DNA of 33,748 nucleotides from Parcubacteria group bacterium Gr01-1014_56 (GTDB taxonomy: Bacteria > Patescibacteriota > Minisyncoccia > Phycocordibacterales > SBAW01), in contig VMFK01000005.1 of assembly GCA_007375995.1 (NCBI GenBank), forward strand, positions 1 to 33,748, read 5' to 3'. Below, piece by piece: positions 3,309-29,852 of the stretch (position 1 is its first letter; the number at the start of each line of letters is the position of its first letter). Below the pieces are notes generated by a model. It saw nothing but the letters and a program-made list of their open reading frames with translations, was not told the DNA's origin and did no database searches. A program made the position numbers and the translations under genes.

Positions 3309-4322
3309 TTAAAAAGGTATATTATCATGATCAATCTCGAGATCATCGACTTTCCTTTTTTTAATCACCCACGGGGTAGCTTTGTTTACTTCATATGCAG
3401 AGAGGTAATTTGCTTTTAAGCTTTCCGGGTCTTGCTCAGCAATAAATACCTCAGGCATAGATAATATGATTAACTCCGCAATATTGATATTTTTTGACGC
3501 AATAAGTTTATATATGTTTGGTGTATCAACCGGAATAGTAGTACGGTCAGTGTGTCTTACGTCTGATATCTGATTTGAGAGCTCTTTTGAGTTTTTTACT
3601 GTCTCGCTTAACAGACTAGCTAGTTTTTTAACATTCGCTGAACCTGTCCATCTTTCTGCCACTTTTACACACAGTTTTTCTGCGTAATCTTTTGTTTTCT
3701 CTTTAGATTTAGGGCTGCTAAAAATTAACTGTAAAATTTCAGCTGAAGTTTTTGCTGATACTTCAAAATTTGGTTCTGTGACTCTTTGTTGCTGATAATA
3801 ATGATATATTTTTTGCTTTAACAATTTCTCCTTAACTATAGGAGCAATCGACCGCAGGCCTGAGCTTTCAGTATTAATGATCATAAAACTATGTAATGCA
3901 AATTTACAGTTTTCTTCTTTAAAAATTTTATTAAAACGCTCTACCAAATCTTCACGTTTTTCTTTCTGAGCAAAAATTAATACAAGTTCAATTAGATCAA
4001 ATACTTTGCTATCGCATTTCTTTTCCGTCTTTAGTTCCAAACTTTCAAAGTTTATAAATTCAGTAATGTCATACCCTGCCTCCATTAGGGTTAGTTCCTT
4101 TATTGGTAGTTCGTAAAAATAATACTCCTTTTTAACTTCATCATTGACGAGCAAAAATCTTTCCAGATATTTGTCTGTTTTAGAAATATATTTAATTAAT
4201 TGCAAAAGACGCTTTCTAACAGGGTCAGCTAGAAAAGAATCTTCTTCCCTCTCTGCTTGCCTTAGAAAAACTCCTTGATTTCTATAAAGTCTAACTTCGT
4301 TTCTTTTTGAATAAAGTTCCAT
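3309..4322 (-). CDS. AbiJ-like protein (AbiJ-NTD-like N-terminus, degenerate Abi_C/HEPN-like motif); candidate abortive-infection/defence gene
   Basis: 337-aa AT-rich ORF. N-terminus 'ELYSKRNEV..(30 aa)..DPVRKRLLQLI' resembles the 'FS.R.G ... LRN.LWN' signature of AbiJ N-terminal domains. 'SNQISDVRH' resembles the Abi_C 'RN.LSDAHG' motif but lacks the first Arg. Recognition by memory only. Confidence 0.45.
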   Translation of the reverse strand: MELYSKRNEVRLYRNQGVFLRQAEREEDSFLADPVRKRLLQLIKYISKTDKYLERFLLVNDEVKKEYYFYELPIKELTLMEAGYDITEFINFESLELKTEKKCDSKVFDLIELVLIFAQKEKREDLVERFNKIFKEENCKFALHSFMIINTESSGLRSIAPIVKEKLLKQKIYHYYQQQRVTEPNFEVSAKTSAEILQLIFSSPKSKEKTKDYAEKLCVKVAERWTGSANVKKLASLLSETVKNSKELSNQISDVRHTDRTTIPVDTPNIYKLIASKNINIAELIILSMPEVFIAEQDPESLKANYLSAYEVNKATPWVIKKRKVDDLEIDHDNIPF

Positions 4323-17559: not shown

Positions 17560-17602
17560 AATAGTTTTATGATTGCTTTTTTATTTTGAAATCTTCAAAA
17601 TG

Positions 17603-20497: not shown

Positions 20498-20938
20498 TTA
20501 TTTTTTTAAACTCACGTTGCTTGCGTGTATAGGAAATTGTTTATCAATTATTTGTCCCTTCTGGCCTTCGCGCCTTGGCTTTGCATGTTTTTTACGCATG
20601 CCAGTGCCCTCCACGAGCACCATGTTGGTCTTAGGGAAGACTTGCGTAACTTTGCCGCTCTTGCCGCGGTCAACGCCAGCAAGAACTACTACGGTATCGC
20701 CTTTTTTTATATATGAGCCGTCTTTGCGACGAAATGCTTTGCGCTGACGCACTACGACACCACGAAGTATGTCCTTCTTTTTAACTCCTTTGCGCGGCTC
20801 AGCCACCTGGACCGAGAGCGTGACCAGTTCGCCTATCTCAGCATAGCGCTTTGCGGCGCTCCCAAGCACTTTGAAAACGCGGCCGATTTTGGCACCTGAG
20901 TTGTCTGCTATGACGACGAGTGAGCGATCTTGAATCAT
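20498..20938 (-). CDS. rplN/rplX: In-frame chimera: N-terminal ~77 aa of L14 fused to L24 (KOW domain onward)
   Basis: 'MIQDRSLVVIADNSGAKIGRVFKVLGSAAKRYAEIGE...RRKDGSYI' is L14 up to the conserved DGS.I. It continues directly as 'KKGDTVVVLAGVDRGKSGKV...VEG....KKH.KP...IHASNV', which is L24. 441 nt total versus ~600-690 nt expected for two genes. Confidence 0.8.
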   Translation of the reverse strand: MIQDRSLVVIADNSGAKIGRVFKVLGSAAKRYAEIGELVTLSVQVAEPRKGVKKKDILRGVVVRQRKAFRRKDGSYIKKGDTVVVLAGVDRGKSGKVTQVFPKTNMVLVEGTGMRKKHAKPRREGQKGQIIDKQFPIHASNVSLKK

Positions 20939-20943
20939 AAATG

Positions 20944-21210
20944 TTAATTCTCCTTTGCGAAGACTATTTCAAAAGACTTCGTCTTCGAGAGCGGCCGGCA
21001 CGAGCGGATAGTTACTGTCTCCCCTTCTTTTGCACGGTTGCCAGGGTTGTGTGCGTGATATTTCTTACTCGTCTTCATGTACTTTTTGTACTTTGGATGC
21101 TTGACGTAGCGAGACACCAGCACCACGGCTGTGTCCGTCATTTTGTCGGATACTACGGTGCCGCGAAGTGTCTTCTTATGCTTTTTTATTTCTTGGATTT
21201 TTGTTTCCAT
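20944..21210 (-). CDS. rpsQ: 30S ribosomal protein S17
   Basis: 'LRGTVVSDKMTDTAVVLVSRYVKHPKYKKY.K.SKKYHAH'. Confidence 0.95.
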   Translation of the reverse strand: METKIQEIKKHKKTLRGTVVSDKMTDTAVVLVSRYVKHPKYKKYMKTSKKYHAHNPGNRAKEGETVTIRSCRPLSKTKSFEIVFAKEN

Positions 21211-23430: not shown

Positions 23431-23502
23431 AATAGAGCCTTGCCGGAGGCGGTTTATAGATATAGAGTGTGGGAAGAAGTTCACTGCAATGGGAGTAAAA
23501 TC

Positions 23503-24063
23503 ATGCTCAACCTTAAGACACTACCTGTCCACATACGGAGGGCTGCTAAGCAGATCGATCTTGTGGCTGATGCGCTCGCACGCGCAAACCGCGGTCGGGA
23601 ATGGTTAGACAAACACGCCCCGCCTGACTGGCGGCTCCAGATGATGTCTATAACCGGCGGAAAAATTTCTTCGCGGGTAAGGCTTCCTTATGGTGATCAA
23701 AACCCTCTAGCACTGGCGTTTCGCAGGGATAAAAGCCTCAAGAACGGAGACGGCCGAGTGATATGGGCTTCAGTCTCGGATCGATTTGGATTTACCCAGA
23801 ATCGCAAAATACCACAAGAGTTGGGTTTTTTGGAAAAAAGACACCAAGTAGAGAATGCGCTCATCGACGAAAATATCGACGGATATTTTCTCGATGATGC
23901 GTGGGAAACTATACTGAAGAACTTACGCTGGTACCCCCAACCGGTTGCTCCCTACCCAAAAAAAGAAGAACCGAAAAAATCTTTCAGTTTCTTCAGTAGT
24001 CCCGACAGGAATTCTTTGCTAACTAAAATGGCTGGCGAAACTCATCGGGATCAAGATACCTAA
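23503..24063 (+). CDS. Hypothetical protein (186 aa) on the opposite strand, inserted between rplB and rpsS
   Basis: ATG at 23503 is preceded by GGGAG with 7-nt spacing. No family recognised. Convergent with rplB, sharing a bidirectional terminator. Confidence 0.6.
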   Translation: MLNLKTLPVHIRRAAKQIDLVADALARANRGREWLDKHAPPDWRLQMMSITGGKISSRVRLPYGDQNPLALAFRRDKSLKNGDGRVIWASVSDRFGFTQNRKIPQELGFLEKRHQVENALIDENIDGYFLDDAWETILKNLRWYPQPVAPYPKKEEPKKSFSFFSSPDRNSLLTKMAGETHRDQDT

Positions 24064-26813: not shown

Positions 26814-27212
26814 CTATTGCATTCGATGACGGAGATAATATCGCCAACCTGCATAGAGGAGTGTGAGGGCTAAAATTCCTACCGCCATAAAAGTAATAAA
26901 TTGTGTCGAGAATTCGGCAGTGTTAAGTAGCGTATAAGCAGCCCATACTCCAATCGCGGCAATAAGTACGTCGAGGAGTGAGTTTTGCCAATCTTCAACA
27001 ATACCGAGTAGCATTTCAAACCCTTCATACAAAGAAGTGAGCGCCACGGTAATGATAACTGTTGACCACAAAGAGAGCCCAAGCCACAGGCCTACTATGC
27101 CCAACAAGAGGCCGGTCAAAAGATGCACAATACTCCACGGGTCGAGATACCGGCCGTGGCCCCAAGTAAGTTTGATTGCCTGCTGTGCCTGACGCTCAAA
27201 ACGTAACTTCAT
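26814..27212 (-). CDS. Integral membrane protein (4 TM), function unknown; possible paralog of 13229-13612
   Basis: Hydrophobic segments. 'SIVHLLTGLLLGIVGL', 'LYEGFEMLLG' and 'LLDVLIAAIG' mirror 'IPIHMVGGLTIGFWGL', 'VWELFEYVSG' and 'LKDLGDDLFG' of the other gene. Confidence 0.6.
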   Translation of the reverse strand: MKLRFERQAQQAIKLTWGHGRYLDPWSIVHLLTGLLLGIVGLWLGLSLWSTVIITVALTSLYEGFEMLLGIVEDWQNSLLDVLIAAIGVWAAYTLLNTAEFSTQFITFMAVGILALTLLYAGWRYYLRHRMQ

Positions 27213-27320: not shown

Positions 27321-27890
27321 TCATTTCATTAGTCTAAATTTTTCTTTGAGAAAGTAGTCGCCTTCAATCTTATCTGCAATGATATACAAGAGATCTTTTC
27401 CAATACGAAAATCAATTTTTAGAAACGTAATGAGATCCTCGCAATCATATGGGTACACCCATACACTATCTTGTAAACGGCTAAAGCCCAGACTAATCAG
27501 TGTTACACGTAGTCGTTCGCGGATGCGTTTGTGTTTTTCAGGAATATCAAAAATAAGAATACGCCATTTACTATCCCATCGTTTTGGTTTTTTTAGAGCT
27601 AATCGCCCCTCGTTGAGTAGAGCTGCAAACTGTTCTCCTCGTAAAGTAAGACGTGCCTGGTTATTTTCGATTTTGATATATCCCTTTCCAATAAGTCTAG
27701 AAAAAGACTTTTTGATAGTTTGCCTCTTCTGACTTTGATTACGTCGGGCAAGATTTCCCATTGCTGCAAGTACATTCGGAGCGACAACCGCGACCGCAAG
27801 TGTACCTCCAATAGCAAGAGTACCAATAATGGCCTTATTGATTTTTGTGCGCCGTACGTGTGCGCGAACTTCTCGCTCCAATGTACCCAT
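27321..27890 (-). CDS. PaaX-C/Cas2-like-domain protein with N-terminal hydrophobic segment and a probable winged-helix region
   Basis: '[52 protein letters not shown]' matches the PaaX C-terminal/Cas2-like ferredoxin-fold pattern. The N-terminus has '[25 protein letters not shown]'. No cas1 or array nearby. Confidence 0.65.
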
Positions 27891-28095: not shown

Positions 28096-28500
28096 CTACG
28101 CCATCTTCACGTCTATCGTGACACCTGAAGGTAAGGAGAGGTTGGTGAGTGCCTCGATGACCTTTGGAGAAGGGTCGAGGATGTCGATAACGCGCTTGTG
28201 GATCCGCATCTCAAACTGCTCGCGCGCATCTTTGTAGACGAACGTCGAGCGGTTAACGGTATATTTTTTGATCTCGGTTGGGAGCGGTATCGGGCCGGCA
28301 ACCTTAGCATCGTAGCGAAGCGCCGTGTCGAGTATCTGTTTTATCGACGCGTCGAGCACCTTGTGCTCGTAGGCTTTCACCTTGATGCGCAGCCGCTGGA
28401 CAGCAACTGGTGCAGCCGCCTTGCGCACACGCGGCGCACTCTTTGCGCCTGCGGGCTTTGCGGCTGCCTTCTTTTTTGTTTCTGTTGCTTCAGCTGGCAT
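28096..28500 (-). CDS. rpsJ: 30S ribosomal protein S10 with ~32-aa Lys/Ala-rich N-terminal extension
   Basis: Core '[15 protein letters not shown]...I..TA.R..A.V.GPIPLPT....[22 protein letters not shown]'. Extension '[32 protein letters not shown]'. Confidence 0.95.
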
Positions 28501-28538: not shown

Positions 28539-29732
28539 TTACGCAGTTATTTTCGTTACAACACCTGCGCCCACAGTCTTGCCTCCCTCGCGAACTGCGA
28601 AGCGGGTCTTCTCCTCGAGCGCAACCGGCGCTACGAGTTTAACCTTAAAGGTCACCGTGTCGCCTGGCATAACCATCTCAGTTCCTGCTGCAAGCGTTAC
28701 CTCGCCTGTAACGTCTGTAGTGCGGACATAGAACTGCGGTTTGTAACCAGTGAAGAACGGTGTGTGACGACCGCCCTCGTCCTTGGTGAGGACATATACT
28801 TCTGCGTCAAATTCAGTGTGTGGAGTTACCGAGCCGGTCTTAGCAAGCACTTGGCCACGGTGTACGTCCTCTTTGCGCGTACCGCGAAGCAAGATACCTG
28901 CGTTGTCGCCTGCCAAACCTTGATCGAGTTGCTTATTGAACATCTCGATACCAGTGATAGTGGTTTTTGCTGTCGGGATAAGACCGACGATTTCGATTTC
29001 CTCGCCTACCTTAACTGAACCGCGCTCAATACGACCGGTAACGACAGTGCCGCGACCTTCGATCGAGAAGATGTCCTCAACTGGCATAAGAAATGGCTTG
29101 TCTGTCTCGCGAACTGGAGTCGGGAGGTAGGAGTCCATTGTGTTAACGAGCTCGAGTACCTTTTGTGACCACTCATTAGTGAGGTCATTGCTCTCAAGTG
29201 CCTTAAGCCCTGAGCCGCGGATTACCGGAGCGTCGGTGTAGCCGTGCTTTTTGAGGAGGTCCTTCACTTCCTCTTCGACGAGGTCAACGAGATCCTGATC
29301 GTCAACCATGTCTACTTTGTTAAGAAAGACGATAACCTTCGGTACGCCAACTTGTTTTGCAAGGAGAATGTGCTCGCGGGTCTGTGGCATCACGCCGTCG
29401 GTTGCTGCAACCACAAGTACTGCGCCGTCCATTTGAGCGGCTCCAGTGATCATGTTCTTGATGTAGTCGGCGTGGCCCGGAGCGTCGATGTGCGCATAGT
29501 GGCGGTTTGGTGTCTCGTACTCAGAGTGGTGGAGCGCAATCGTAATACCGCGCGCCTTTTCCTCAGGAGCGTTGTCGATACCATCTACCCCTTCAACACG
29601 AGCGCTGTAACCCTGGCCTTTTGCCATGTCGAGCGTGTGGAGGATCGATGCGGTGAGTGTCGTCTTGCCGTGGTCAACGTGGCCGATAGTGCCTACGTTC
29701 ATGTGCGGCTTAGACCTGTCAAAATTTGCCAT
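28539..29732 (-). CDS. tuf: Elongation factor Tu
   Basis: '[21 protein letters not shown]', 'DAPGHADY' and 'NKVD'. Start at ATG 29732 ([10 protein letters not shown]). Confidence 0.97.
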
Positions 29733-29824
29733 AAATAAAATACCTAACAATTAATAATTACTTTTATAAGCCCCGTTACACTACCTTTTTAGCATAGGAA
29801 AGCCCGCCCTATTGCATTAAGGCC

Positions 29825-29852
29825 ATAGTAACAAACCGTACAAAAGATGCAA
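29825..29852 (-). promoter_or_regulatory. Sigma70-like promoter candidate for tuf-rpsJ
   Basis: Minus strand: TTGCAT (29852-29847), 16 nt, TACTAT (29830-29825). Same TTGCAT -35 as the candidates at 26809 and 27970. Confidence 0.35.

Follow-up and report, generated by a model that had tools for sequence, protein, structure and literature searches.

The window (the whole stretch of 33,748 nt analysed here) carries, at 20498..20938 on the minus strand, a single 146-aa ORF in which residues 1-77 of ribosomal protein uL14 are followed directly by residues 7-75 of uL24. We consider this fused ORF to be a local error of the window contig, with a probability of roughly 0.87, and the organism to have normal, separate rplN and rplX genes. 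The initial annotation had left open whether the ORF reflects natural fusion or reduction, variation within the population, or a deletion introduced by assembly or sequencing at a homopolymer. Among these, the comparisons of contigs and relatives described below favour a local assembly error, and a fixed natural fusion is not supported.

The reading of the ORF as L14 up to residue 77 and the L24 KOW domain from there on, as first described, was borne out by Pfam, NCBIfam and PDB alignments alike. For the uL14 part, the Pfam Ribosomal_L14 profile (PF00238) matched ORF residues 1-91 with profile positions 1-91 of 122 (84.4 against a cutoff of 23.6), and NCBIfam rplN_bact (TIGR01067) covered profile positions 1-94 of 122 at 84.0 bits, below its equivalog cutoff of 111.1 bits, such that the fused ORF has no full-length uL14 match above the equivalog cutoff. 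The conserved C-terminal segment of uL14 (RFDENAVV...R.FGPIPRE...APEVV) is absent from the ORF. For the uL24 part, Pfam KOW (PF00467) was found on residues 79-110 and ribosomal_L24 (PF17136) on residues 114-144, and NCBIfam rplX_bact (TIGR01079) matched residues 77-144 with profile positions 4-72 of 104 at 77.1 bits, above its cutoff of 53.7, so the KOW and C-terminal domains together qualify as uL24. Alignments of PDB chains to the ORF start at residue 1 for uL14 and at residue 76 or 77 for uL24. Relative to the native 75-aa uL24, the ORF lacks only codons 1-6, and with them the start codon. The match to the rplX model ends at position 72 of 104; we rejected a C-terminal truncation of the uL24 part, since 75 aa is the native length in this lineage, whose uL24 stops ~30 positions short of the end of the 104-position bacterial model (L001, L003, L085 and L086). 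AlphaFold2 gave low-confidence models both for full-length uL14 (25-sequence alignment, pLDDT 51.8) and for the chimera (single sequence, pLDDT 37.5).

The two parts are joined at a codon boundary between 20708 and 20707, with I77 at 20710..20708 and K78 at 20707..20705, in agreement with the earlier placement of the junction at codons 77/78. The protein sequence runs ...DGSYI77 from uL14 and then KKGDTVVV... from uL24. The fused ORF is embedded in an ordinary S10/spc ribosomal-protein cluster, which on the minus strand reads L2, S19, L22, S3, L16, L29, S17, [L14/L24], L5, S14, S8, L6, L18, S5, L15 and SecY. The upstream neighbour is rpsQ (S17, 20944..21210, minus strand) and the downstream neighbour is rplE (L5, 19955..20494, minus strand), both part of the ribosomal protein operon. 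Scans of the window with Rfam and for tRNAs returned no matches.

The same locus is intact in other assemblies of the same organism. The window sequence was found in only one indexed public run (93% of sampled words), a 2019 groundwater metagenome (Logan record SRR8863434, here X1), which was examined as assembled contigs, a form in which rare variants are lost. The Logan contigs of X1 span the whole 33.7-kb window at a word depth of ~7.5x with essentially no differences, indicating that the window represents the same population; a T>G difference from a Logan contig was seen at 3328, 39 nt from the end of that contig. One of these contigs (L002; 4,770 nt, depth 7.5) crosses the locus and has 174 additional letters exactly between 20707 and 20708, and an independent ENA MEGAHIT contig (L001; 22,775 nt) carries an identical 174 nt at the junction. 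By BLASTN and direct comparison, the ENA contig and the window agree at 3,781 of 3,781 nt upstream of the junction and 5,973 of 5,976 nt downstream, and over this overlap of ~9.7 kb they differ only by the 174-nt insert and three synonymous bases. Within the fused ORF, codons 1-77 of rplN (20708..20938, minus strand) are 100% identical to the rplN of the intact allele in both contigs, and codons 7-75 of rplX with the stop codon (20498..20707, minus strand) equal the intact allele except for those three bases.

The 174 nt comprise rplN codons 78-126 (147 nt), a TAA stop (3 nt), the spacer ATTTGT (6 nt) and rplX codons 1-6, encoding MNTLHV (18 nt). The insert thus encodes exactly the C-terminus of uL14, the stop, the spacer and the start of uL24, and given the conservation of that C-terminus it is genuine sequence. 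The loss had been estimated from the window at ~45 aa of L14, ~3 codons of L24 and 150-250 nt overall, close to the actual 49 codons, six codons and 174 nt. In the ENA and the Logan contig alike, rplN (126 aa) and rplX (75 aa) are distinct genes 6 nt apart, and both contigs encode the full-length uL14 of 126 aa (P0004) that is the nearest uL14 in the protein collection and is identical to the fused protein over residues 1-77. The organism is a groundwater Patescibacteria/Paceibacterota bacterium with an ordinary rplN, a TAA stop, a 6-nt spacer and an ordinary rplX. The intact allele is certainly real and is the sole form recovered by two different assemblers. The Logan and ENA loci being unfused, the idea of a natural fusion, raised when the window was first read, is contradicted by separate, full-length genes in two independent assemblies. 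Identical flanks together with a junction region that other assemblies of the same data do not reproduce are what is expected of a local assembly error.

The relatives of this organism likewise have uL14 and uL24 as separate proteins. Its nearest named relatives belong to the Patescibacteria (Paceibacterota and Zambryskiibacteriota), with ~75% uL14 identity. All 80 of 80 GTDB relatives match P0004 to residue 122-126, and rplN encodes 121-126 aa in 70 of the 70 loci located by script, with termini of the APEV/EIV type. Within the segment that the fused ORF lacks (uL14 residues 78-126), ~27 positions are invariant among 25 close relatives, pointing to strong constraint in the lineage. For uL24, 73 of the 120 closest relatives listed have a length of 74-75 aa.

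Two features of the junction bear on its origin. The join leaves a run of seven A residues, which the initial annotation had noted at the junction, with a deletion at a homopolymer as one option. The run was not there beforehand but is formed by the join itself, from ...TATATA of rplN and AAAAAAGG... of rplX (that is, TATATA+AAAAAA), and the intact rplX has only six A residues at this position. We therefore rejected homopolymer slippage, given that 174 nt were lost, that the A7 run was made by the join and that there is 0 nt of microhomology between the joined ends. An error in the contig, as allowed for in that earlier proposal, is upheld by the two intact assemblies, while the homopolymer mechanism attached to it is not. 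We also rejected recombination at CAGTGGTG, an 8-nt motif common to rplN and rplX, because the window retains rplX sequence upstream of the motif.

The second feature is the cluster of three synonymous third-position differences from the ENA and Logan contigs (20693, 20690 and 20687; 20687..20693, minus strand), located 15-21 nt from the join and spaced 3 nt apart. Codons T82, V83 and V84 of the fusion read ACC GTA GTA in the window versus ACA GTG GTG in both intact contigs. The same three codons vary among relatives, being ACA GTA TTA in L003 and ACG GTA GTC in L085, and none of the most similar rplX alleles of other samples (L003, L085 and L086) has ACC GTA GTA. That the changes are synonymous, spaced by 3 nt and located at codons that vary among relatives argues for a real variant or a chimeric template, and on these grounds a real divergent allele describes them better than sequencing noise does. 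The junction may therefore have been present in one or more real DNA molecules, whether of a variant or of a library chimera. One relative has CAT ATT (H-I) at rplX codons 5-6, and one can speculate that, if an allele with CAT ATA existed, it would have ATATA (5 nt) in common with rplN codons 76-77, and that this would permit a microhomology-mediated deletion or polymerase template switching.

Searches for the fused form elsewhere recovered only the window itself. In a collection of 5.8 billion proteins, with scoring limited to the 8,000 candidates that had the most words in common, the fused protein (P0001) is a singleton with one member on one contig, and its exact sequence is on no other recorded contig. 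Neither the indexed public runs nor the GTDB genomes or JGI metagenomes contained the junction words. When five 31-mers sampled from 20660-20755 were looked up, one of the five was present in X1 and none in X2 or X3, which come from the same study and were the only further runs listed. A pattern scan of 185,579 GTDB species genomes did not find the junction-proximal sequence, nor did JGI metagenomes contain it or a codon-degenerate pattern for the DGSYI-KKGDT junction. A search for a second co-occurring strain with ACC GTA GTA yielded no further contigs of X1, X2 or X3 at ≥80% likeness, and within the 33.7-kb window there is neither another rplN or rplX nor a copy of the 174 nt at a different position. 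A literature search on uL14/uL24 fusions returned only papers on herpesvirus UL14/UL24. The same architecture in relatives or in independent samples, as would be expected of a natural fusion, was thus not seen; the protein is a singleton and the genes of relatives are separate and full-length.

Based on these observations, we propose that the 174 nt separating rplN codon 77 from rplX codon 7 were lost when the contig was built and that a short non-consensus patch with the three synonymous changes would have been taken up beside the join. The deleted form may have come from an assembler error as such, or the assembler may have followed a rare read path that was chimeric or variant. Because 174 is divisible by three and the break lies between two codons, gene callers interpret the locus as a single chimeric protein of 146 aa. 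A deletion that stays in frame has a one-in-three chance, which counts against a contig error and is equally a point for a genuine minority allele, that is, a subpopulation or a related low-abundance strain that carries the 174-nt in-frame deletion and the three synonymous changes. The origin of such an allele might lie in recombination, illegitimate or short-patch, with an rplX allele that had diverged, and the assembler would have taken the minor path. The linkage of three synonymous changes 3 nt apart at codons that vary among relatives would suit a natural allele, a de Bruijn assembler should make no zero-overlap join without a read that carries the junction, and the CAT ATT of a relative hints that a CAT ATA version could have provided ATATA microhomology. 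Against this, neither the Logan nor the MEGAHIT assembly has a branch or an alternative contig at the site at ~7.5x depth, no indexed run contains the junction words, and outside 20687-20708 the window equals the dominant strain, with no second strain visible. As both assemblers pass the site unbranched, a junction-bearing path could only be a minor variant. Moreover, the allele would lack the conserved uL14 C-terminus with no second rplN in the window, which should be lethal in a single-copy genome, and most likely it would encode a protein without function and would not persist. We thus regard a genuine minority allele as unlikely, and slightly more so the specific version in which an in-frame 174-nt deletion allele with a divergent rplX patch circulates at low frequency in the groundwater Paceibacterota population.

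Far less probable still is a fixed, functional fusion, in which the ribosome would use the uL14(1-77)-uL24 chimera in place of the two proteins. The reading frame is open with the junction on a codon boundary, HMMER alignments to some full-length uL14 chains pass the junction to residue ~115, and the strands of the KOW domain are superficially like the uL14 strands that were lost; a direct BLASTP comparison of uL14 with uL24 gave only E = 0.01 over 23 aa. However, both genes are intact in other assemblies of the same organism, the architecture was not found among the 8,000 top candidates scored from the 5.8-billion-protein collection or in JGI metagenomes, and every relative in which rplN was located has a full-length uL14 with a highly conserved C-terminus. 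uL14 is an essential, universal, single-domain beta-barrel whose fold is completed by its C-terminal strands and helices. In addition, the binding sites of the two proteins on the 50S subunit are far apart, uL14 being at the subunit interface and uL24 at the tunnel-exit side, and to our knowledge a linker-less uL14-uL24 chimera could not occupy both. uL24 is also a protein of early ribosome assembly (PMC10931766).

The fused ORF can be compared with several known systems. Apart from the fused ORF, the order of genes in the window (S17, L14, L24, L5, S14, S8, L6, L18, S5, L15, SecY) is that of the canonical spc operon, which starts with rplN-rplX-rplE (uL14, uL24, uL5; PMC10931766). It differs from the canonical operon in lacking 174 nt across the rplN-rplX boundary, which turns the two genes into one chimeric ORF. 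Four other listed proteins, of 200 aa (P0002), 218 aa (P0022), 167 aa (P0003) and 172 aa (P0051), also have L14 together with L24/KOW domains, each being an adjacent rplN and rplX called as one protein on a Patescibacteria-like contig. In contrast to the window ORF, P0002 and P0022 retain L14 to its C-terminus and look like stop-codon read-through, and P0003 and P0051 retain L14 to approximately residue 95, followed by an apparent frameshift. None of the four lacks the C-terminal third of uL14 from residue 78 and none has the I77/K78 junction, so that they represent another type of artefact or fusion. The tightly spaced rplN and rplX genes seem prone to mis-calls. Local errors are frequent in metagenome assemblies, with 13 found in one curated CPR genome of 1.13 Mb (Chen et al., 2020, Genome Res., PMC7111523). 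The fused ORF resembles these in that other assemblies built from the same data do not recover a short consensus stretch and in that wrong protein-coding sequence is spread in public databases. Such errors are reported at approximately ten per Mb-scale CPR genome. Errors of this type are defined by the absence of perfect read support, whereas the present case was judged from contigs and its synonymous patch hints at a variant or chimeric molecule.

The main value of the result is one of data hygiene, as a 146-aa chimeric protein is present as a singleton in public protein collections. Since uL14 and uL24 are standard markers for concatenated ribosomal-protein phylogenies and for completeness estimates, the chimera can distort alignments or score as a missing or duplicated marker. 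CPR bacteria truly lack some ribosomal proteins, and an unverified "reduced L14" could therefore be over-read as further ribosome reduction. L30, whose absence is known in the Candidate Phyla Radiation, is lacking here too; the gap between rpsE (S5) and rplO (L15) at 17560..17602 is only 43 nt and hence leaves no rpmD. Comparing several independent assemblies of the same run offers a quick test of such fusion claims. If a minority allele did exist, the locus would offer a momentary view of recombination damaging an essential ribosomal operon in an ultra-small episymbiont or, conceivably, of heterogeneity that is tolerated in such an operon.

We also noted other features of the ribosomal cluster. 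On the plus strand at 23440..24063, opposite to the surrounding genes, an ORF of 186-207 aa lies between rplB and rpsS, without a Pfam or PHROG match. It is identical in the ENA contig and absent from the ~86%-identical relative (L003/L004), in which the gap between rplB and rpsS is 88 nt, and it is an unexplained strain-specific insertion within the ribosomal operon. Two non-ribosomal ORFs (27321..27890 and 26814..27212, both minus strand) were found between rpsJ (28096..28500) and the presumed rplC; one has a PaaX_M (Cas2-like) domain (E = 1.3e-19) and the other, of 132 aa, is without matches. In the relative L003, the interval from rpsJ to rplC likewise contains an unannotated gene of 114 aa. 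At 29264..29825, in tuf (28539..29750, minus strand), the depth of the X1 contigs rises to ~44x from ~7x elsewhere, with a 260-nt "joint" at 29399-29660; this jump likely reflects contigs of the conserved EF-Tu GTPase domain from other organisms and is probably no feature of the genome. In the relative L003/L004, an insertion of ~1.8 kb between rplE and rpsH (L003 7190..8980) contains an RHH_1 protein and small ORFs. Finally, rplX was skipped by the gene caller in L004 (6381..6721), where the DNA around the rplX start (~110 nt) is identical to that of L003.
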